The notes under the pieces: model-generated
Database searches by the model: none
The model's input: the letters and a program-made list of their open reading frames with translations, nothing else
What the model was told of the DNA's origin: nothing
In this document: positions 2,527-35,752 of the stretch, in pieces
Layout of the letters: every line of letters starts with the position of its first letter
Numbering within the stretch: the first letter of the stretch is position 1
Assembly (NCBI GenBank): GCA_038325075.1
Contig: JBBQIQ010000004.1
Coordinates: 260 to 64,259 of the forward strand
DNA: 64,000 bases
Direction of reading: 5' to 3'
From: Bacteroidales bacterium
Lineage (GTDB): Bacteria; Bacteroidota; Bacteroidia; Bacteroidales; Lentimicrobiaceae
Position numbers and translations under genes: made by a program

Positions 2527-3984
2527 ATGGCAAAAGTAGTCGTTTTGGGCGCTGGCATTGCAGGGCATACCGCTGCTGCATTTCTGCGCAAGAAACTTAG
2601 TAAACAACACGAAGTGGTGGTCGTTACCCCGAATTCTTATTACCAATGGATCCCATCCAACATATGGGTTGGCGTTGGCCGGATGACCATCGACCAGGTC
2701 AGATTCAAACTGGCACCGCTTTATAAAAGGTGGGGCATCGATTTCAGGCAGGCCCGTGCGGTGAGTATTCATCCGGAAGGGAGTTCAGGTTCCGGAAAGC
2801 CGTTTGTCAGCATCGAATACACAACCGATGACAAAAAAGGTGTCACCGATCAGGTCGAATACGACTTCCTGGTAAACGCCACTGGTCCGAAACTTAATTT
2901 TGAAGCCACTGAAGGCCTGGGCCCCGGAAAAAATACCGTCTCAGTTTGTTCGTTTGATCATGCAGCCCATGCCTGGGAAAAACTGCAGGAATCCATTGCC
3001 AGGATGGAGAAAGGGGAGAAGCAGCGGTTTGTAATTGGCACGGGACATCCTATGGCTACCTGTCAGGGTGCTGCATTCGAATACATTCTGAATGTGGCTT
3101 ATGAAATTCGCAAACGCAAGCTGGAGCATCTGGCCGAAATCACCTGGCTTACCAACGAATATGAACTGGGCGACTTTGGAATGGGAGGTGCTTACATCAA
3201 ACGGGGGGGCTATATAACCTCTACCCGCGTTTTTGCCGAATCGTTTCTGGGCGAAAATGGCATCAAATGGATTAAACGGGCCGGAGTGAAGAAAGTTGAA
3301 CCCGGGCTTATTCACTACGAAACCCTTGATGGCGAAGAAAAACAAATAGGATTTGATTTCTCTATGTTGATCCCCGGTTTTGCAGGCGTTGGCCTGAAAG
3401 CTTATGACAAAGCAGGTACCGATATTTCTTCAGCCTTGTTTGCGCCCAGTGGCCTGATGAAAGTGGATGCCAACTACACGCCGAAACCTTTTGACGACTG
3501 GAGTGCGGCAGATTGGCCCGAAACCTATCAGAGCCCGGCATACAAAAATATTTATGCACCCGGAATTGCCTTTGCACCGCCACATGCCATATCAAAACCA
3601 ATGACAAGTAAAAACGGTACAGCCATCTTTCCCTCTCCTCCACGTACAGGTATGCCATCCGGCGTTATGGGTAAAATTGTGGCTGAGAATATCATCAACG
3701 AAATAAAAACCGGCAAAGAGGAATTTAAACACAAGGCAAGCATGGGCCGGATGGGCGCTGCTTGTATTATATCGGCCGGCTTTGGAATGACAAAGGGAGC
3801 AGCGGCAACCATGACTGTACATCCGATTGTTCCCGACTGGGAAAAATACCCGGAATATGGCCGCGATATTAAATACACCATTGGCGAAGCCGGACTGGCA
3901 GGTCATTGGATGAAGTGGTTTATGCACTATATGTTTCTGCATAAAGCCAAAGGCTACCCATTCTGGTGGCTGTTGCCAGAATAA
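2527..3984 (+). CDS. sqr: Sulfide:quinone oxidoreductase (FAD-dependent; resembles Chlorobi SqrD-type)
   Basis: GxGxxG (LGAGIAG), YQWIPSNIWVGVG, Cys in VCSFDH, TCQGAAFE and GAACI, C-terminal amphipathic W/F-rich helices. Confidence 0.8.
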   Translation: MAKVVVLGAGIAGHTAAAFLRKKLSKQHEVVVVTPNSYYQWIPSNIWVGVGRMTIDQVRFKLAPLYKRWGIDFRQARAVSIHPEGSSGSGKPFVSIEYTTDDKKGVTDQVEYDFLVNATGPKLNFEATEGLGPGKNTVSVCSFDHAAHAWEKLQESIARMEKGEKQRFVIGTGHPMATCQGAAFEYILNVAYEIRKRKLEHLAEITWLTNEYELGDFGMGGAYIKRGGYITSTRVFAESFLGENGIKWIKRAGVKKVEPGLIHYETLDGEEKQIGFDFSMLIPGFAGVGLKAYDKAGTDISSALFAPSGLMKVDANYTPKPFDDWSAADWPETYQSPAYKNIYAPGIAFAPPHAISKPMTSKNGTAIFPSPPRTGMPSGVMGKIVAENIINEIKTGKEEFKHKASMGRMGAACIISAGFGMTKGAAATMTVHPIVPDWEKYPEYGRDIKYTIGEAGLAGHWMKWFMHYMFLHKAKGYPFWWLLPE

Positions 3985-4180: not shown

Positions 4181-4214
4181 TGTAGGATGTCGGAAGTCGG
4201 AGGTCAGATGTCAG

Positions 4215-4313
4215 CCCTTCGACATGGTTCGACATGGTTCGACATGGTTCGACAAGAGCTCACCAACCGAGAGCTCACCAACCGAGAGCTCACCAACCGA
4301 GAGCTCAGGGACC
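4215..4313. repeat. Triple-nested REP-like element: CCCTTCGACA [TGGTTCGACA]x3 [AGAGCTCACCAACCG]x3 AGAGCTCAGGGACC
   Basis: 99 bp = 24-bp host + 3 x 25-bp unit. Confidence 0.95.
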
Positions 4314-4440
4314 GAGGTCGGAGGTCGGATGTCAGAAGTCGGAAGTCGGAAGTCAGAAGTCGGAAGTCGGAAGTCAGAAATCCGCAATCCGAAGTCGGAA
4401 GTAAGAGGTCAGAAGTCAGATGTCAGAGGTCAGAGGTCAG

Positions 4441-4514
4441 CCCTTCGACATGGTTCGACATGGTTCGACAAGAGCTCACCAACCGAGAGCTCACCAACCG
4501 AGAGCTCAGGGACC
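4441..4514. repeat. Double-nested copy of the same element (x2/x2)
   Basis: 74 bp = 24 + 2 x 25. Confidence 0.95.
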
Positions 4515-4599
4515 GAGGTCGGAGGTCGGAAGTCGAAAGTCGGAGGTAAGAAGTAAGAGGTCGGAAGTCGGAGGTAAGAAGTCGGAAGTAAGAGGTCGG

Positions 4600-4646
4600 C
4601 CCTTCGGCTTGGTTCGACTGCGCTCACCAACCACCACCCAGGGACC
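4600..4646. repeat. Single-nested variant: CCCTTCGGCT [TGGTTCGACTGCGCTCACCAACCA] CCACCCAGGGACC
   Basis: 24-bp variant insert at the same position (after TTCGRCN) in a variant host. Confidence 0.9.
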
Positions 4647-4677
4647 GATGTCGGAAGTCAGAAGTAAGAAGTAGGAA

Positions 4678-4933
4678 AAAATCCGCAATCCGCAATCCGC
4701 AATCTGAAATCCGAAATCCGCAATCTGAAATCCGCAATCTGAAATCCGAAATCTGAAATCCGCAATCTGAAATCCGAAATCCGCAATCTGAAATCCGAAA
4801 TCCGCAATCTGAAATCTGAAATCCGAAATCCGAAATCCGGAATCTGAAATCCGAAATCCGCAATCTGAAATCCGAAATCCGCAATCTGAAATCCGAAATC
4901 CGCAATCTGAAATCCGAAATCCGCAATCCGAAA
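4678..4933 (-). repeat. About 36-copy heptamer array (AAATCCG/CAATCTG on +; CGGATTT/CAGATTG on -) abutting the polA stop
   Basis: Uninterrupted 7-nt periodicity; source of the spurious RISDF ORF. Confidence 0.95.
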
Positions 4934-7735
4934 TTAATGAGCTTCCAGCCAGTTACTTCCTGTACTCATCTCAATCTCAACCGGTACATCCAGTGTCATG
5001 GCCGTTTTCATCAGTCTTTCGATGACCGGTTTCACCAGGTCAACTTCGGGTTTATAGACATCAAAAACCAACTCATCATGCACCTGGAGGATCATTTTCG
5101 ATTTCAGGTTCATTTTGCTTAATTCATTGTAAATGTTGATCATAGCAATCTTGATCATGTCGGCCGAAGAGCCCTGAATCGGCGCATTGATGGCGTTTCG
5201 TTCGGCGAAGCCCCGCACAATGGCATTACCAGAATTGATGTCGCGCAGATAACGCCGGCGTTTCTTCAGGGTTTCAACGTATCCATGGGCCTTTGCAAAG
5301 ACGATGGTATTGGCCATATATTCCCTGATCCCGGGGAAGCGGTCAAAGTACTGGCTGATGATATCGGCGGCTTCACGCCTTGGGATGCCAAGCCTTTCAG
5401 AAAGCCCAAAGGCTGATATGCCATAGATAATTCCGAAGTTCACAGTTTTGGCGTTTCGGCGCATTTCCCTGGTAACCTCTTCAACTTCAACATTGTAAAT
5501 GCGTGCTGCGGTAGCCGTGTGAATATCGATGCCCTGCCGGAAAGCTTCCTGCATGGCAGAATCTCCGCTGATATGGGCGATAACCCTGAGTTCAATCTGC
5601 GAATAGTCGGCTGAAAGTAAAGTATATTCTTCATTGCGCGGGACAAATGCCTTCCGGATTTCGCGCCCCCTGTCGGTACGGATGGGAATATTCTGAAGGT
5701 TCGGATTGTTGGAGCTGAGCCTTCCGGTAGAAGCAACCGCCTGGTTATAAGAGGTATGAACCCTCCCGGTTTTATGATTGATCAGTAAAGGAAGCGTATC
5801 CACGTAGGTGGATTTGAGCTTGGTAAGCGACCGGTAATCAAGAATCTGTTGAATTATGGGATGTTTGTTGATGAGCTTTTGAAGAATCTCTTCCCCTGTT
5901 GAATGCTGTTTGGTTTTTGTCTGTTTGGGATTGTCAACCAGCTTCATTCGGTCGAAAAGCACTTCGCCCAATTGTTTGGGTGAGCCGATGTTGAACTTCA
6001 TCCCGGCAAGAGTATAGATTTCAGTTTCTACCTGCCTGATCTCGATCCCGAGTTCAGCAGAATAAGCATTCAGATTTTCATTGTCGATTTTTACCCCTTC
6101 GGCTTCCATGGCTGCAAGAACCTTGATCAGTGGGATTTCTATCTCGTCGAAAAGCGCGCGGGTTTCGGTCTGTTCGAGCAAAGGTTCGAGTTTGTGGCGC
6201 AGTTGAAGGGTGATGTCGGCATCTTCGGCGGCATACTCTTTAATTGTTTCCTGCTCAACCATGCGCATATTCAATTGGTTCTTGCCTTTTTTACCAATCA
6301 GGTTTTCGATCGAAACCGGCCTGTAATTAAGGTAGGTATGGGCCAGATAATCCATGTTGTGGCGCAGGTCGGGCTCAATAAGGTAGTGTGCCAGCATGGT
6401 ATCGAACAATGGGCCGTTTACAACAATGTTATAATTGGAAAGGATTGAAATGTCGAACTTCATATTCTGACCGGTTTTGCCTATGGCCGGATCAGCAAAA
6501 ATTCCTGCGAATTCAGCCGTAATTTCGCTGGCAGCCTTCGTGTTGTTGGGTACCGGAACATACCAGGCCTCACCGGCTTTAATGGCAAACGACATCCCTA
6601 CCAGTTCGGCATCAAGGGTATCCAGGCCGGTGGTTTCAGTATCGAAGCAAAAAGACCCGGCCGATTTCAGTTGCATGATTAGTTGGGCGCGCTTTTCCGG
6701 TGTATCAGCCAGGTGATAGGTGTGTGGTGTATTTTCTATTGTTCTGATGTTTGATTCTTCGGGAAGTGCTTCGTTCATGGAGCTGAAAAGGTCAGGCGCT
6801 GTTGTAGGCGAACTCTGTATGGAAATGTTCGGGCTTCCGTTTTTAAGCGACAGGTCAGTGAAAACCCGTTTGGCAAAGGTCATGAACTCAAGCTCATCCA
6901 GCACCGCTTTTAAGGCTGGCACATCCGGATTTGTTAACTTCAGGGCTTCTTCATCAAATGCAATAGGGACATCCAGAATAATGGTAGCCAGTTCTTTCGA
7001 CATCAAGGCCTGTTGGCTGAAATCCTTCACCTTTTGGCGCATAGGCTCTTTTTCGATTTTATCGGCATTGGCGATCAGGTTTTCGATGTTGTCGAAATCC
7101 TCAAGCAGTTTTCGCGCCGTTACTTCGCCCACGCCCGGGATGCCGGGGATATTATCCGATACATCGCCCCAGAGGCCAAGCATATCGATGACCTGATCGG
7201 GCCGTTTTACACCGAACTTTTCACAGACTTCCTTTATGCCCATGATAACGGGTTTCTCGCCGGGTTTGCCGGGCTTGTATTGCAGAATATTATCGGTCAC
7301 CAACTGTCCGAAATCCTTATCCGGCGTCATCATAAACACCTTGTAACCTTTATTGCCGGCCTGCCTGGCCAGGGTCCCGATAACATCATCCGCTTCAAAG
7401 CCATCAACAGCAAGAATCGGCACATTAAAGGCCTCAATCAGTCGTATAATATAGGGAATTGCTGTGGCAATATCTTCTGGCATGCTCTCGCGTTGAGCTT
7501 TATAGGCTGGAAAGCTCTCATGCCTGACGGTGGGTGCCTGGGTGTCGAAAGCCACGCCAATGTGGGTTGGCTTTTCATTCTTAATGACATCGTAAAGCGA
7601 ATTGGCAAAGCCCAGCACCGCGGAAGTATTCAGCCCTTTTGAGGTAATTCGGGGGTTTCTGTTAAGTGCATAATAGGCCCTGTAAATCAAGGCCATAGCA
7701 TCTAAAAGGAATAATTTATTATCGGGCTGTGACAT
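4934..7735 (-). CDS. polA: DNA polymerase I
   Basis: 5'-3' exo (LLDAMALIYRAY, GFEADDVIG), 3'-5' exo (FDTETTG), polymerase motifs ADYSQIELR, AKTVNFGIIYG, QVHDELVF. Confidence 0.99.
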   Translation of the reverse strand: MSQPDNKLFLLDAMALIYRAYYALNRNPRITSKGLNTSAVLGFANSLYDVIKNEKPTHIGVAFDTQAPTVRHESFPAYKAQRESMPEDIATAIPYIIRLIEAFNVPILAVDGFEADDVIGTLARQAGNKGYKVFMMTPDKDFGQLVTDNILQYKPGKPGEKPVIMGIKEVCEKFGVKRPDQVIDMLGLWGDVSDNIPGIPGVGEVTARKLLEDFDNIENLIANADKIEKEPMRQKVKDFSQQALMSKELATIILDVPIAFDEEALKLTNPDVPALKAVLDELEFMTFAKRVFTDLSLKNGSPNISIQSSPTTAPDLFSSMNEALPEESNIRTIENTPHTYHLADTPEKRAQLIMQLKSAGSFCFDTETTGLDTLDAELVGMSFAIKAGEAWYVPVPNNTKAASEITAEFAGIFADPAIGKTGQNMKFDISILSNYNIVVNGPLFDTMLAHYLIEPDLRHNMDYLAHTYLNYRPVSIENLIGKKGKNQLNMRMVEQETIKEYAAEDADITLQLRHKLEPLLEQTETRALFDEIEIPLIKVLAAMEAEGVKIDNENLNAYSAELGIEIRQVETEIYTLAGMKFNIGSPKQLGEVLFDRMKLVDNPKQTKTKQHSTGEEILQKLINKHPIIQQILDYRSLTKLKSTYVDTLPLLINHKTGRVHTSYNQAVASTGRLSSNNPNLQNIPIRTDRGREIRKAFVPRNEEYTLLSADYSQIELRVIAHISGDSAMQEAFRQGIDIHTATAARIYNVEVEEVTREMRRNAKTVNFGIIYGISAFGLSERLGIPRREAADIISQYFDRFPGIREYMANTIVFAKAHGYVETLKKRRRYLRDINSGNAIVRGFAERNAINAPIQGSSADMIKIAMINIYNELSKMNLKSKMILQVHDELVFDVYKPEVDLVKPVIERLMKTAMTLDVPVEIEMSTGSNWLEAH

Positions 7736-9498: not shown

Positions 9499-9755
9499 TA
9501 TGAACGATTCTTTATTTGTTTTATAAACAAGTGGAAGCAGAGTTATAAACCAACCTTCAATCATGGAATCAACTGACTGAATATCTGGATTTGATCAGGG
9601 TTATTTTCAGTCAGCTTGATCAGACAGGTGATTTAAAAAATATATAAAACCGGGCTTATTGTTCCTTTGGAAGAAAAATAAGTCCGTTTCTTTTCGGGAA
9701 GAAAGGGTAAGCAGAAAAGAGGTTGGTGCTCTCCGCAAAACTCTCCTTAAATCAA

Positions 9756-10185: not shown

Positions 10186-10828
10186 CAAAGGTAAACCCCG
10201 ATTTGGAAATTGTTGCAATTCACCATAGCCATAAAACTGTTTTTTTGTGAATTGCTTACAATTTCCTGATCGATTGAGCTATTTTCCTTTTCAAATCGCT
10301 CAATTTGGGTCATAATCTGTATTTTTTTTGGTAAACGGGTGATCTATCAGTTTAACTGGAATACAAGCATTGGTAATCAATTCGTTAATATAGGGTTTTA
10401 TTGTCCCTTTGGCCATCGGGATCGTGCGTTGGCACTTTTCCCCATAAATCGTATAGGGTTTGGCAGATTTTTATTATCCACCAACCTGAAAAATAGATGC
10501 ATAAAAATTTGGAATTTTCTGTTTATTGCAATATATTTATGTCACTATTCCAAGTCCGGGTTTTTCACCCGAAAACGCCGGTATAGAAACGGCGCTTTTC
10601 ATTACTCAACCCTACATATTCCTTTGTAAAAAATAACGTAAAACTCAGGTTACTCCAAAAACCGGGTTTAAACATAGCAATCTGGTAGTATAAACTCAGT
10701 TTTAACAATTGGCAGTGAAGAATAGATATGCTACCCAACCCAATGAAATTATCAGAAACGCTAATATTGAAAGGGTTTTAACTCAAAGCAAATATAACTA
10801 ATCCGGAAAACATTAAAAGGCTGATCTT

Positions 10829-14627: not shown

Positions 14628-16346
14628 ATGGCTAAGAAAACACTGAAAGATGAAGTTGCTGAAATGATTCACACTGCCGTAAGCCCAATTTATAAGGCGA
14701 ATAAAACAATCAGGAAAAACAGGAGTACTAAGACGATCCGCCGGAAGAAACCTGATCAGGAAGAGAAGGTTCCGGAAGTCCCTGTAATGTTAAATGGGAA
14801 ATCGAAAGTTGGAACAAAAGGCGGGGAAGCAAATATTGCCTCGAAAGAGCCAATAAAGCACTCAAAAACGATCACCGGAAAAAAACCTGAAACTGATCCA
14901 AAACCAACACCTCAAAAAGAGGTAAAGGAGTCGAAACCAAAAGTATATGGCAGGAAAGAACCTCTGATCAGTGATTTACCGGAAATGATTGCCCCGGTTC
15001 CCAAAGCTAAGCAGGTAAAACCATCGGGCCAGAAAAAAATCTTTGTGATTGACACTTCGGTTATTTTGTACAACCACGATTCTATCAATAATTTTGAAGA
15101 TAATGACGTAGCCATACCGATTACCGTACTCGAAGAACTCGATAACTTTAAAAAGGGCAACGACACCAAGAATTTCGAAGCCCGCGAGTTTATCCGGATT
15201 ATTGATGCACTCTCCGAAAACGGGATGCTCACCGACTGGATACCCTTAGTAAAATCAAAGGGCGGAAAGTTTAAAGTTGTGATGAATGAGAAGAGTTCGG
15301 TGGATGCCCGGCTGATTTTTGATGACAACAAACCCGACCACCGTATCCTGAATGCAGCGCTGGCACTTTCGCAGGAAAATCCGGACAGAAAAGTGGTGTT
15401 GGTTAGTAAAGACATCAACCTCCGCCTCAAGGCAAAATCGTTAAACATTGCCGCGGAAGATTTCCTGACCGGTAAAATTAAAGATGTTGAAGGTTTATAT
15501 ACCGGAATTTCAACCATTAACAATCTGAGTGGCAGAGTTATAGATAAATTATATCAACAGGGCTATTGTATGCCAAAGGATATCGGGGTTAAGAATCCGA
15601 TTCCGAACCAGTATTTCATTCTGAGAAATACCACCACATCCGCGTTGGCATTTTATAACTCATTGACAAAGAGAGTTGAGCGGATTGAGAAGAGATCAGC
15701 TTTCAGAATTACGCCACGCAATGCCGAGCAGGTATTCGCCCTGCACGCCATTCTTAATCCCGATGTTAAGCTGGTTACTTTACAGGGTGTGGCAGGTACC
15801 GGCAAAACCTTGCTGGCGCTGGCTGCAGCCCTTGATCAAAAACGCAATTTCAAACAGGTTTTCCTGGCCAGGCCTATTGTGCCGCTTAGCAACAAGGACA
15901 TCGGTTTCCTGCCAGGCGATATTAAATCTAAGATCAATCCCTACATGGAGCCGCTGTACGACAACCTCAAATTTATACAAAGTCAATACAGCGAGAAAGA
16001 CAAGGAGTATAAAAACATCACTGATTCATTGGATAATGAAAAACTGGTTATTCAGCCACTGGCTTACATTCGTGGGCGAAGTATCTCGAATGTTTGTTTC
16101 ATTGTGGATGAAGCCCAGAACCTCACCCCGCACGAGATAAAAACCATCATCACCCGTGCCGGGCAGGGGACTAAGATTATTTTTACCGGCGATATTTACC
16201 AGATAGATACACCCTATCTTGATGCGCAGAGCAACGGGCTATCCTATCTTATCGACAAGGTAAAGCACCATTCGATTTATGCTCATGTCAGGCTGGAGAA
16301 AGGGGAACGGTCGGAACTGGCCAACCTGGCCAACGATTTGCTCTGA
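14628..16346 (+). CDS. PIN-domain PhoH-family ATPase with long basic N-terminal extension
   Basis: PIN (VIDTSV...EELD...DHRIL), Walker A GVAGTGKT, RGRS, DEAQN. Confidence 0.92.
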   Translation: MAKKTLKDEVAEMIHTAVSPIYKANKTIRKNRSTKTIRRKKPDQEEKVPEVPVMLNGKSKVGTKGGEANIASKEPIKHSKTITGKKPETDPKPTPQKEVKESKPKVYGRKEPLISDLPEMIAPVPKAKQVKPSGQKKIFVIDTSVILYNHDSINNFEDNDVAIPITVLEELDNFKKGNDTKNFEAREFIRIIDALSENGMLTDWIPLVKSKGGKFKVVMNEKSSVDARLIFDDNKPDHRILNAALALSQENPDRKVVLVSKDINLRLKAKSLNIAAEDFLTGKIKDVEGLYTGISTINNLSGRVIDKLYQQGYCMPKDIGVKNPIPNQYFILRNTTTSALAFYNSLTKRVERIEKRSAFRITPRNAEQVFALHAILNPDVKLVTLQGVAGTGKTLLALAAALDQKRNFKQVFLARPIVPLSNKDIGFLPGDIKSKINPYMEPLYDNLKFIQSQYSEKDKEYKNITDSLDNEKLVIQPLAYIRGRSISNVCFIVDEAQNLTPHEIKTIITRAGQGTKIIFTGDIYQIDTPYLDAQSNGLSYLIDKVKHHSIYAHVRLEKGERSELANLANDLL

Positions 16347-16471
16347 TCATTCATGCGGTGTTTTTTGTTGCCGTTCCGGGAGTTTCTGTTGGGCCAGTTA
16401 AACCCCTGGCCCTGGGCGTTTTGCTCATACCTTCAAAGGCATCTTCCTTTGAATTGAAGGGTTGGCCTGGC

Positions 16472-16984
16472 TTATTTGTTTTGATTAAGTTTAAATCCAA
16501 CAGGTTTTATGCGTTTGTTGGCCTTTTGGTGCAATGCATCAATTTTGTCCAATAAAAACCTGAAAGCCTGGTTGAGTTTGGCGTCGAGTTTCAGGATCTC
16601 ATGTTTCAGTTCTTCGTTTTCCCTTAACAATGCCCTGTAACGGGCAAAAGCACGCATGATTTCGATGTTGATTTTGATGGCTTTTTCAGACCGTAATATC
16701 GATGAAAGCATGGCAACGCCTTGTTCGGTAAATGCCAATGGATTTACAGAAGAATGTTTCAGAATAGCTAACCGGTCACAATTTGTGACCAGTTCATATT
16801 TCTCTTCCTTAGAGAGTTCAAACATAAAATCTTCGGGAAAACGTTCAATATTACGTTTGACCTGTTGCTTCAACGCTTTTGTCGGAACACCATATAAAAC
16901 TGCCAGGTCAGCATCAATCATCACTTTGAAACCTCTGAATTGAAAAATCATGGTTTCGTATTCCGGTTTTATTAAACTATCCAT
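16472..16984 (-). CDS. ORF6N domain DNA-binding protein
   Basis: VMIDADLAVLYGV...KRNIERFPEDFMFEL, AFTEQGVAMLSSIL. Confidence 0.9.
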   Translation of the reverse strand: MDSLIKPEYETMIFQFRGFKVMIDADLAVLYGVPTKALKQQVKRNIERFPEDFMFELSKEEKYELVTNCDRLAILKHSSVNPLAFTEQGVAMLSSILRSEKAIKINIEIMRAFARYRALLRENEELKHEILKLDAKLNQAFRFLLDKIDALHQKANKRIKPVGFKLNQNK

Positions 16985-29962: not shown

Positions 29963-30100
29963 TCTCTTTATCTCAGTTTCTATTCAGAAATACAGCTATT
30001 TTCCTTTTTAGCTTCAACGGACTTTGATTGCAGGCAGATACTACCAATATAGTCCGTCGCCTGCATAACCGCTTCTGACCCAGGATTCTTTACTTTTTAA

Positions 30101-30180
30101 GCTTCGACTACGCTCAGCTCATCGCTTTTTACTTTATACTTTGAGCTTTTAACTTTGAGCTTTGAGTTTTTAACTTTGAC
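30101..30180 (-). repeat. Empty TTCGAC..GCTCA-family palindrome (GCTTCGACTACGCTCAGC) plus a short heptamer array (TTTTAAC/TTTGAGC) after the DHS-like stop
   Basis: Same core as the 4.2-kb nested elements; 7-nt periodicity. Confidence 0.75.
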
Positions 30181-31200: not shown

Positions 31201-31407
31201 CTCAGGGCACAGAGCGCAGAGCACAGAGCTCAGGGCTCAGGGCACATGGAGCGAAGCAGCTTACCCCGCGCTCTTTTGCGGGGGAGTCCCGACCACTTCG
31301 TCGGGAGGGCGCAGGGCTCAGGGCACGGGGCTCAGGGCTTAGGGGCTCAGGGGGCGCAGGGCATGGAGCATGGAGCATGGAGCATGGAGCATGGAGCATG
31401 GAGCACG
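31201..31407 (+). repeat. Heptamer array (GGGCTCA/GAGCACA/GAGCATG) with an embedded 80-bp double-hairpin element (31228-31307)
   Basis: 7-nt periodicity; element repeated at 32368-32447 and 32463-32542. Confidence 0.92.
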
Positions 31408-31684
31408 AAGGAATTTCTAATGTCTATTGAACGGGGCTCGTGAAATAGATGTTTCAGCAAATTTTGTCTCCCCACCTTCACTTCGTTGCGGCGGGCAGGC
31501 TGGTGTCTTTGTCTCTTCGTCTCTAAGTCCCTTCTTCACATCCCTCGCCCCTTCTAAAATAAAGTTGTAATTGCCTGGTTCTTATGCTAATTTTGTGGTA
31601 TTGTTTTTATGCTAATGCATTGATGGATGCATATATTGTCAAAACCAAAATTCAAACGTTGTTACAATCCAAATAAGTAAAGTC

Positions 31685-31900
31685 ATGGACAATACGATTC
31701 TTATTCAATTGACCAATCACAAAGCCCTTGGGCTCTTGCGTGAGATGGAAGAGTTGCAACTGATTAAAGTCTTAAAGGAAAATATTGAACCTCTTAAAAC
31801 CAAATTGTCAGGTAAATATAAAGGTTTTATTACCAAAGAAGAAGGAAAGCAATTAAATGACCATATAAACCAGATGCGAAGCGAATGGAACATTATTTAA
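31685..31900 (+). CDS. Putative antitoxin (VapB-like partner)
   Basis: 71 aa, directly upstream of and overlapping a PIN gene. Confidence 0.7.
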   Translation: MDNTILIQLTNHKALGLLREMEELQLIKVLKENIEPLKTKLSGKYKGFITKEEGKQLNDHINQMRSEWNII

Positions 31901-32268
31901 CCGATACCAATGTTATTTCTGATTATTTTTCGGCCACTCTTCCTTAAAGTGGATTGCAATTTATGGATGCTGTTATTGATGCCGTTCCTAACCTTTCTGT
32001 AATCTCTCAAATAGAACTGCTTTGCTGGAAAGCGGATACTGTTAAAGAAAAACGGATAAAAGACTTTATTGCCGATAGCACTATATATGATAATACCCCC
32101 GATGTTATTACCCATTGCGTGAAGATCCGGCGGAATAAAAAAGCTAAAACCCCGGATGCAATTATTGCTGCTACTGCCCTGTCTCATGGATTTACACTTA
32201 TCACCAACAACGAAAAGGATTTTAAAAATATCAAAGGCCTGAAAATTATAAATCCTTTTAAGGTTTAA
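31885..32268 (+). pseudogene. vapC: VapC/PIN toxin interrupted by an in-frame TAA at codon 21
   Basis: ATG 31885: MEHYLTDTNVISDYFSATLP*SGLQFMDAV...IELL...PDAIIAATA...TNNEKDF; stop at 31945-31947. Confidence 0.85.
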
Positions 32269-32274
32269 TCGAAC

Positions 32275-32810
32275 AGCACAGGGCACAGAGCACAGGGCAT
32301 GAGGCATGAAGCATGGAGCATGGCAAAGCCGTCCCTCGTCCCCACTTCCCGTCCCTCGTCCCATTTAGCTCAGGGCTCAGGGCACATGGAGCGAAGCAGC
32401 TTGCCCCGCACTCTTTTGCGGGGGAATCCCGACCTCTTCGTCGGGAGAGCGCAGAGCACAGAGCTCAGGGCTCAGGGCACATGGAGCGAAGCAGCTTGCC
32501 CCGCACTCTTTTGCGGGGGAATCCCGACCACTTCGTCGGGAGGGCTCAGGGCAAAGAGCATGCGTAGCGAAGCGAAGTCCCGCCCACTTCGGCGGGAGGG
32601 CATGGGGCATTGCTTTGAAAGGTGAGGTTTCGTCTCTTTAGAATTAGACAAAAAGACCAGGGGAAATGGGAACAAGCGGACGCCCGGACCTTCTTTCTCC
32701 ATGTCTCCCGATCTCCATGTCTCCCTGTCTCTTACTTATTGGCAGGAGTTAACTTCAAAATGCATGGGGCATGGAAATTCGTCCCTCGTCCCAAACGTCC
32801 CCTGTCCCTT
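32275..32810 (+). repeat. Composite repeat field: heptamers, two 80-bp double-hairpin elements, one variant lacking the inner hairpin (~32559-32598), and blocks shared with 8.1 kb
   Basis: Direct comparison of copies; source of many spurious ORFs. Confidence 0.9.
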
Positions 32811-35606: not shown

Positions 35607-35752
35607 AGAGAGTGATAAGAGTGAAGAGTGAAGAGTGAAGAAAGTGAAGAGAGTGAGTAGTGAGTAGTGAGAAATGAGTGGTGCCCTTCGGCTACGCCCA
35701 GGGTAAAAGTAGTGAGTGAAAAGTGAAGAAAGTGAAAAGTGAAAAGTCAAGC
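35602..35752 (+). repeat. Heptamer array (GTGAAAA/GTGAAGA/GTGAGTA) containing an empty host palindrome CCCTTCGGCTACGCCCAGGG (35684-35703)
   Basis: 7-nt periodicity; unoccupied relative of the 4600-4646 host. Confidence 0.88.

Follow-up and report, generated by a model that had tools for sequence, protein, structure and literature searches.

The window analyzed here is a stretch of 64,000 nucleotides (nt) from a draft genome of a Bacteroidales bacterium (GenBank assembly GCA_038325075.1, contig JBBQIQ010000004.1, positions 260–64,259, forward strand). Near its left end, the genes for an oxidoreductase-like protein and for DNA polymerase I converge on a 950-bp spacer that is filled with heptamer arrays. 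Within these arrays lie three nests, in each of which a small unit, the TGG unit of 25 nt or a variant of it, occupies the loop of a resident hairpin module (the host). Where a nest is more than one unit deep, each further unit sits at the center of the one before it. The locus contains the following features.

2527–3984, plus strand: FAD/NAD(P)-dependent oxidoreductase-like gene, 485 amino acids (Pfam Pyr_redox_2, 34.7 bits), converging on polA.
4186–4677, plus strand: heptamer tandem arrays of GTCGGAA, GTCAGAA and GTAAGAA with three host modules, detected by Tandem Repeats Finder (TRF); the rows of the host-bearing arrays are 4186–4214, 4317–4440, 4518–4599 and 4654–4677.
4215–4313, plus strand: three-deep nest, an exact match to the constructed string that is also seen as TRF arrays; host left CCCTTCGACA at 4215–4224, three unit left arms TGGTTCGACA at 4225–4254, three unit right arms AGAGCTCACCAACCG at 4255–4299, host right AGAGCTCAGGGACC at 4300–4313.
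4441–4514, plus strand: two-deep nest, identified in the same two ways; host left 4441–4450, unit left 4451–4470, unit right 4471–4500, host right 4501–4514.
4600–4646, plus strand: one-deep variant nest, reading CCCTTCGGCT ^ TGGTTCGACT GCGCTCACCAACC ^ ACCACCCAGGGACC; host CCCTTCGGCT at 4600–4609, B-type unit TGGTTCGACTGCGCTCACCAACC at 4610–4632, degenerate host right arm ACCACCCAGGGACC at 4633–4646.
4679–4934, plus strand: second type of heptamer array, AAATCCG / AAATCTG, abutting the 3′ end of the minus-strand polA.
4934–7735, minus strand: polA, DNA polymerase I (Pfam DNA_pol_A, 547 bits, with 5′-3′ and 3′-5′ exonuclease domains).

The two deeper nests can be written down from a few short sequences. 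When n copies of TGGTTCGACA followed by n copies of AGAGCTCACCAACCG are placed between the two halves of the host CCCTTCGACA^AGAGCTCAGGGACC, the resulting string reproduces the window letter for letter at 4215 (n = 3, 99 bp) and at 4441 (n = 2, 74 bp), and there is no third exact match within the window. The arms of the nests form arrays of period 10 and period 15 with an identity of 100% (TRF), and the left arm TGGTTCGACA occurs five times in the window against 0.13 expected, a count reached in 0 of 100 shuffles. In the third nest, the B-type unit is placed after TTCGGCT, at the same offset as the units of the other nests. The empty host is regained when 25 nt are taken out at one unique position; it is present as an exact 24-mer in 22 copies elsewhere in the genome, and no target-site duplication accompanies the unit. 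A sequence-only reading of this locus had proposed the three-deep and two-deep structures, the variant insert at a matching offset and the lack of a target-site duplication, and all of these are borne out. The host itself behaves as a block, as deletion of the 25-nt host (CCC...ACCG) restores the register of the heptamers on inspection of the sequence. The left junction is also present on an independent Logan contig, L013 (SRR17021131), which ends inside the run of left arms; the identical oxidoreductase-like protein is found on two Logan contigs, both broken in the repeats.

The same reading had pointed to two empty hosts elsewhere in the window. Both exist and lie within heptamer arrays, but they belong to other subtypes of the module and are not copies of the same host.

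30100–30119, plus strand: empty member with an AGC stem (AGC TTCGACT ACGCTCA GCT), inside a CTTTTTA-type array.
35684–35703, plus strand: empty member of the CCC-stem type whose loop carries the GCCCA variant, located in an AGTGAAG/AGTGAGT array.

The genome is represented by an incomplete 4.1-Mb draft of 266 contigs, labeled here with C-numbers. In this assembly the unit and its hosts belong to one stem-loop family whose members are 24–25 nt long and consist of a 3-nt stem, the loop TTCGRC-N3–4-GCTCA, the complementary 3 nt and an ACC tail, with a loop of 14–15 nt around a 3-bp stem. At least nine stem types are complementary (CCC/GGG, TGG/CCA, TGC/GCA, TCC/GGA, CAC/GTG, GCT/AGC, TAC/GTA, AGC/GCT and GCC/GGC). 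In a covariation alignment of 20 variants, picked by the loop alone, 91.7% of the stem cells are paired compared with 49.8% after shuffling, a value reached in none of 500 shuffles, and with 25%–43% when the partner is slid; 26 double-sided stem changes are present. Scans of the family against Rfam and for tRNA gave no match. The loop, as read from the sequence, resembles the T-loop and D-loop words of tRNA, TTCGA and GCTCA.

The module with the CCC stem is likewise a block of 25 nt, and it stands in register inside heptamer arrays (GTCAGAA, CGAATGA, AGGTCAG). Such arrays number 301 in the genome, with many unit types, and make up ∼0.5% of the assembly; 17 contig ends fall inside them, and they flank no real open reading frame in this genome. 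Empty members with the AGC stem occur 16 times genome-wide. The orientation of the elements relative to flanking genes is unbiased (46 sense vs 42 antisense, for co-directional gene pairs), and the written strand, compared with GC skew, leans weakly to the G-rich strand (33 vs 18, p = 0.046). Of the 46 multi-element clusters, 39 have a single orientation. No enrichment of HIP1 (highly iterated palindrome 1) was found in the genome. The commonest loop variant is an A to G change at loop base 7 (TTCGACG AGAGCTCA). A G at this base is what removal of a unit one base leftward would leave, and the variant could be either an excision footprint or a plain transition.

The TGG unit, TGGTTCGACA AGAGCTCACCAACCG, is 25 nt long and is accompanied by the B variant. 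The 4.1 Mb contain 46 exact copies of its 23-nt core and 123 exact left arms, and 64 units could be placed in a host context. All 64 lie in a host loop, including four hosts with a mutated arm. The entry point is always between loop bases 7 and 8, after TTCGRCN and without target duplication, and this offset is invariant across the 49 runs of TGG units. The run is flanked exactly by CCCTTCGACA^...^AGAGCTCAGGGACC in 31 of the 49; the remainder have variants of these flanks or other hosts of the family, which comprise TCC, TGC, AGC, GGT and TGA modules and a GGGACTTCGCT^ site. The B-type unit has at least eight further copies elsewhere in TCC-stem hosts, including C13, C36 (four copies), C69 and C112. 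Depths range from one to six.

Only the TGG-stem lineage sits inside other modules: 118 TGG left arms stand behind another left arm, compared with no CCC arm, and head-to-tail junctions of a right arm with a left arm were found in none of the data sets. These counts agree with the earlier proposal that the unit rebuilds its own target at a fixed site of a TTCGRC-N-GCTCA core. Each insertion breaks up the target that it enters, and the only intact one is then at the center of the new unit, so that units can stack only concentrically and never head-to-tail. Hosts that read TTCGGCA hold units that read TTCGACA. The unit does not take over the variants of its host, which marks it as a fixed block rather than a local duplication. 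With TGG and ACCG as its ends, it has neither the terminal inverted repeats nor the target duplication of miniature inverted-repeat transposable elements.

Several further inserts and hosts were noted. A 24-nt GC hairpin, TCCCCGCCAAAGTGGGCGGGGCAA, occupies the same loop position, after TTCGRCT, in CCC-stem hosts at C88:∼9401, C163:∼6576 and C58 (minus strand, ∼236), which indicates that the loop center accepts more than one kind of insert. These hairpins may be related to the CCCCGC hairpins at 31228–32598 of the window. A composite repeat, TTTCCCGCCGAAAAGGCGGGACTTCGCT^CCGCTGCGCAAAG, in GGTTCAA arrays is another host (L002 at ∼3200–3400; C59; L017, L023, L028 and L032). In this host the outermost unit finishes with a variant 3′ sequence, CCACAAG, and several nests that the parser had scored as unequal become balanced (4/4, 2/2) when this unit is counted. 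In both species discussed below, a third insert, a hairpin element, lies inside a right arm, between GAG and CTCA.

C65:∼16300–16475, L009 and L039 (minus strand, ∼7812): 57-nt element (CCTGCCTGTATGCCGGCAAGGT...CACAGG...) with the ends AGCCTG/CAGGCT.

To follow the unit beyond this genome, the exact 25-mer was used as the query in a species collection and in metagenomes. Among one genome per GTDB species it is present only in "MAG: Bacteroidales bacterium Co_metawrap_1396", a metagenome-assembled genome (MAG) built with MEGAHIT (k141). This sister species has the same hosts, arrays and nests; its genes are 75%–90% identical, and the 25-mer is identical. GH92 and Por_Secre_tail proteins were found as neighbors. 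A heterocystous cyanobacterium as the source of the genome was rejected on the strength of the MAG match and the lack of HIP1 enrichment. At intergenic sites shared by the two species, the heptamer-array content is strongly different and the nests differ in depth. L010 is 2/2 (left/right arms) where C78 is 1/1, a clean difference of 25 bp; L004 is 1/1 where C33 has three empty hosts; and L007 is 1/1 where C85 is 2/3. The unit was also found on 41 contigs from five metagenome samples of the Joint Genome Institute (JGI). Most of these are 96%–99% identical to the genome studied here, and for that reason they are taken as independent assemblies of the same species. Their tally is 14 nests of 1/1, 12 of 2/2, one of 4/4 and seven unequal, and orthologous loci show the same shallow nests (for example L022, L045, L049, L050 and L052). 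A close strain also supplies a filled and an empty version of one host: with the same flanks, L031 is filled 1/1 and C10:27314 is empty. The difference is again a clean 25 bp, and no flanking direct repeat is present that would explain it by slippage.

At one nest, C141:∼9550–9695, the right flank and the nest are shared with L026 and L047, but on the left both the flank and the host arm are wholly different; either recombination through the nest or a misjoin by the assembler would account for this. Searches with blastn of 72,556 plasmids, including Nostoc plasmids, gave no match, and searches of phage and viral contigs gave no sequence relatives. The arms diverge from the consensus by <1%, and two species with a gene divergence of 10%–25% share the identical unit, which points to recent or continuing production of units. 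The process is also old, as shown by a decayed and mutated nest in a TGA/TCA-stem host (C2, minus strand, ∼10574–10700) that is still 3/3. Substitutions in outer and inner right arms, compared as a check for an age gradient, number six and two, too few for a test.

Complete CCC hosts number 84 in this genome, 40 of them empty and 44 filled. The left and right arms are equal in number in 30 of the 44 (1/1 in 16, 2/2 in nine, 3/3 in four and 4/4 in one). The two counts are correlated (Spearman 0.83), not uncorrelated as slippage predicts, and none of 100,000 permutations reaches 30 equal pairs (mean 13). The sequence-only reading had held that the arm counts always match; this is true of all three nests in the window and, genome-wide, of the 30 balanced hosts only.

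Taken together, these results show that the TGG unit is a real and probably mobile micro-element, similar to the small dispersed repeats (SDRs) of cyanobacteria. We consider it likely, at a probability of roughly 0.65, that a discrete, nonautonomous 25-nt unit is inserted or removed site-specifically at the center of a hairpin loop by a trans-acting enzyme, with single-stranded DNA as its most likely substrate, and that the arms subsequently slip. In such a mechanism a putative trans-acting enzyme would recognize the small hairpin of a resident module and cut its loop, probably while the DNA is single-stranded, and the unit would be added or taken away as one 25-nt block between loop bases 7 and 8. 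With each insertion the old target would be lost as two dead halves, and one new target would appear at the unit's own center. The 25-nt step, its position and the nesting rule can be read from the sequences themselves; the class of enzyme and the direction of change are inferred. The tandem arms would then change separately, in steps of 10 and 15 bp, by slippage or unequal exchange, which would blur the balance.

A number of observations weigh against this reading. The fold energy of the modules does not differ from that of shuffled sequence (z −1.9 to +0.3), so the hairpin is thermodynamically unremarkable and the evidence for structure lies in covariation, not in stability. No mover enzyme was found in the genome. 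The junction of an excised circle or head-to-tail pair, of the type CACCAACCG joined to TGGTTCGAC and sought as CCAACCG joined to TGGTTCG, is absent from the assembled DNA, and no longer gene-bearing element was found at the loop site, where inserts are only 24–57 nt and longer matches are chance pairs. Orphan arms were considered as ends of a larger element and rejected, as they proved to be chance 9-mers in genes or further host types. The assembled data are compatible with either direction of change, insertion or excision. Balance also weakens with depth: 14 of the 44 filled hosts are unbalanced, 12 by one arm and two by more, and nests two or more units deep are balanced in only 14 of 27. 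In deep nests, single-arm differences between strains are as frequent as whole-unit differences (L029 3/2 vs C91 3/3; L018 4/3 vs C96 3/4; L053 2/2 vs C92 3/1). Arm variants are locally homogenized, with TGTTTCGACA present three times in both L042 and L046 and TGGTTCGGCA twice in C65. The single-arm differences and the homogenized variants indicate that slippage or conversion also acts on the tandem arms. Finally, all of the sequences compared are short-read assemblies, which are often broken and possibly misjoined at these repeats, and the imbalance of deep nests may arise in part from assembly error.

The enzyme that would move the unit was sought among HUH/Y1 transposases, either a transposase associated with repetitive extragenic palindromes (REPs), known as RAYT, or a TnpA of the IS200/IS605 type. 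Such an enzyme would move a REP-like unit in trans by cutting single-stranded hairpins and inserting 3′ of a fixed sequence. Like IS200/IS605 elements, the TGG unit enters directly 3′ of a fixed short sequence, here the heptamer TTCGRCN, and duplicates no target; the covariation-conserved structure and the weak bias to the G-rich strand are further points in favor of this proposal. Known Y1 enzymes cut beside the hairpin, whereas here the cut lies inside the loop. A motif scan and phmmer detected two Y1_Tnp-like (RAYT-like) genes in the 266 contigs and no others.

C45:25174–25756, plus strand: Y1_Tnp-like gene (20.3 bits, below the Pfam cut-off of 23 bits), flanked by its own hairpin repeat.
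C85:9213–9777, minus strand: Y1_Tnp-like gene (29.7 bits) with NHAH and YIHQNP motifs, flanked by its own hairpin repeat.

The NHAH/YIHQNP motifs are those of Bacteroidetes RAYT subclass 2.6, whose genes are flanked by atypical structures (PMC6006769). The repeats that flank the two genes here are GACCTTTCGGGTTATCC and CCTTAGCG-N4-CGCTAAGG, and neither is a TTCGRC...GCTCA module. A RAYT gene adjoining the nested elements was therefore rejected as a candidate; the two genes with their own repeats look like two ordinary REP/RAYT systems beside the nested family. The nested elements also lack a GTAG/CGTC tag, and their clusters are direct (39 of 46 in one orientation) and not the inverted doublets of REPINs. 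Because each RAYT-like gene is flanked by a different repeat, the earlier suggestion of a RAYT/HUH mover is left without direct support, and we regard a Y1 enzyme as unlikely. The accompanying suggestion, that the mover is encoded outside the window, is supported.

Movement might be needed only once. One founding insertion would provide direct repeats, TTCGACA 10 bp apart and AGAGCTCA 15 bp apart, and all deeper levels could then follow by independent slippage of both arms. The perfect tandem arms of period 10 and 15, the 14 of 44 unbalanced hosts, the arm-only differences between strains, the locally homogenized variants and the unit-type arms of C65 that carry a copy of the host variant G are all in keeping with this explanation. 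Shallow nests are not. To pass from 1/1 to 2/2, independent slippage must traverse 1/2 or 2/1, and at least 2 × √(16 × 9) = 24 such intermediates would be needed, whereas the 16 nests of 1/1 and nine of 2/2 are accompanied by only two of 1/2 plus 2/1 (Fisher p = 2 × 10⁻⁵). When each state is counted once per cluster, the numbers are 10 and 8 for 1/1 and 2/2 vs 1 and 1 for the unbalanced states (p = 9 × 10⁻⁴). The permutations never reach the observed balance, the decayed nest on C2 is still 3/3 although it is beyond homogenization, and the difference of 2/2 vs 1/1 between the species is a clean 25 bp. Neither the first insertion nor the filled and empty pair of L031 and C10 can be produced by slippage. 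Thus, the earlier argument against independent slippage holds for shallow nests but not for deep ones, where arm-only differences occur, and slippage as the sole process behind the deeper levels is quite unlikely.

A nuclease could instead cut the loop at ACA^AGA, with repair by gene conversion from a filled copy, so that the unit would spread by homing with no free 25-nt intermediate. Hosts share 7–8 nt on each side of the cut, and their stems and heptamer flanks offer further possible homology. Local homogenization of the arms and the swapped left flanks at the C141 nest, compared with L026 and L047, would also suit such a process. Repair in the wrong register at one end would give 2/1 or 1/2, both of which are rare. 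Host-specific variants are not taken over by the units, and no nuclease candidate was found. On balance, we consider homing-like spread improbable.

An RNA route, in which a transcript of the unit enters the target loop and is copied back into DNA, draws on the covariation-conserved structure and on the tRNA-like loop words TTCGA and GCTCA. We find it very improbable, given that orientation relative to genes is unbiased (46 vs 42), the Rfam and tRNA scans gave no match and no reverse transcriptase is linked to the elements. That the nests are an artefact of short-read assemblers is scarcely credible: contigs do end in these repeats, deep nests differ between assemblies and the left flanks of one locus disagree from one assembly to another, but the same architecture appears in three independent sets (the genome itself, the sister-species MEGAHIT k141 MAG and the five JGI metagenomes), shallow nests recur at orthologous loci, and a single read of usual length exceeds the full 99 bp of the nest.

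Insertion or removal of a discrete 25-nt unit by a trans-acting enzyme thus remains the reading that we favor, and the nests would be an unusually clean case for its study. The cut site is fixed to a single base position, there is one target per nest, and empty, filled and multiply filled hosts coexist in one genome. Occupancy differs across two species and several natural populations. A testable substrate follows directly, namely, a 24-nt host oligonucleotide with a 25-nt donor. In practical terms, nests and arrays break short-read assemblies and can misjoin contigs.

The elements resemble the REP/REPIN-RAYT systems (PMC2817692, PMC3116915, PMC6006769) in being short, noncoding, intergenic, high-copy hairpins that are thought to be moved in trans, and RAYT-like genes are present in the same genome. 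They differ in the 3-bp stem with a 14–15-nt loop, in the lack of the GTAG/CGTC tag and of inverted doublets, in flanking neither RAYT gene, and in their self-nesting, which is not a feature of REPs. With the IS200/IS605 family they share insertion 3′ of a fixed short target without duplication, a dependence on hairpins and possibly a weak strand bias. In contrast to that family, no transposase gene or longer element is present at the site, the unit of ∼25 nt is far below the size of the known derivatives, and the cut lies in the loop.

The heptamer arrays have counterparts of their own. Arrays of the TAACTGA type are described from Cyanobacteria, Beggiatoaceae and a few Bacteroidetes (MacGregor, 2015, PMC4679880; see also Rehm, 2015, PMC4692102). 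Like these and the short tandemly repeated repetitive sequences (STRR) of Calothrix and Nostoc, the arrays studied here are long intergenic runs of 7-nt units that vary between close relatives, and they are the landing ground of the hosts. The two papers describe arrays but do not mention 25-nt nested modules.

The closest likeness in architecture is to the SDRs. The TGG unit is a noncoding, dispersed unit of 25 nt; its host modules stand in heptamer arrays, and it is found only inside host modules. Self-nesting, a structure with compensatory changes and base-precise insertion at a short site complete the resemblance. Elhai, Kato, Cousins, Lindblad and Costa are said to have described SDR1–8 in 2008 from Nostoc punctiforme and its relatives as repeats of 21–27 nt, reportedly dispersed, high in copy number and often located in heptamer arrays, with compensatory-change structure in some families. 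SDR1 and SDR4 were reportedly found inside copies of themselves, and movement through RNA is said to have been suggested once for the Nostoc elements. We know of no enzyme that has been identified as the mover of SDRs since that description. Literature citing it places the insertion of SDR5 precisely between bases 3 and 4 of HIP1, and SDRs are reported there as confined to Nostocaceae. The kinship drawn here is one of descriptive features. In positions 1–50,000 of the Nostoc punctiforme plasmid sequence pNPUN01 the loop motif is absent and two small heptamer arrays are present; in one region of it (L056, 1617–2003), a CTGACTC heptamer array contains the end of a gene whose annotation is "four helix bundle protein".

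Two differences from the SDRs stand out. The host organism belongs to the Bacteroidales and not to the Nostocaceae, and the recursion rule is explicit, with one target per nest and never a head-to-tail arrangement. By this comparison, the TGG unit is best placed as an SDR-type micro-element, of a kind already known from Nostocaceae, and what is new is the phylum, together with a rule of insertion that is unusually explicit. The sequence-only reading had not recognized this Nostocaceae precedent. It is a speculative and rather unlikely extension that heptamer arrays with self-nesting 20–27-nt hairpin modules are the product of one enzyme system common to Nostocaceae, this Bacteroidales lineage and perhaps other phyla, by descent or by transfer. 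If such a shared system existed, cutting the loop of a tiny hairpin and pasting in a 25-nt block, the TGG unit would rank as the smallest self-homing DNA whose target is exact to the base, and it would offer a way to the enzyme. The nested repeat architecture, for its part, is not restricted to cyanobacteria.

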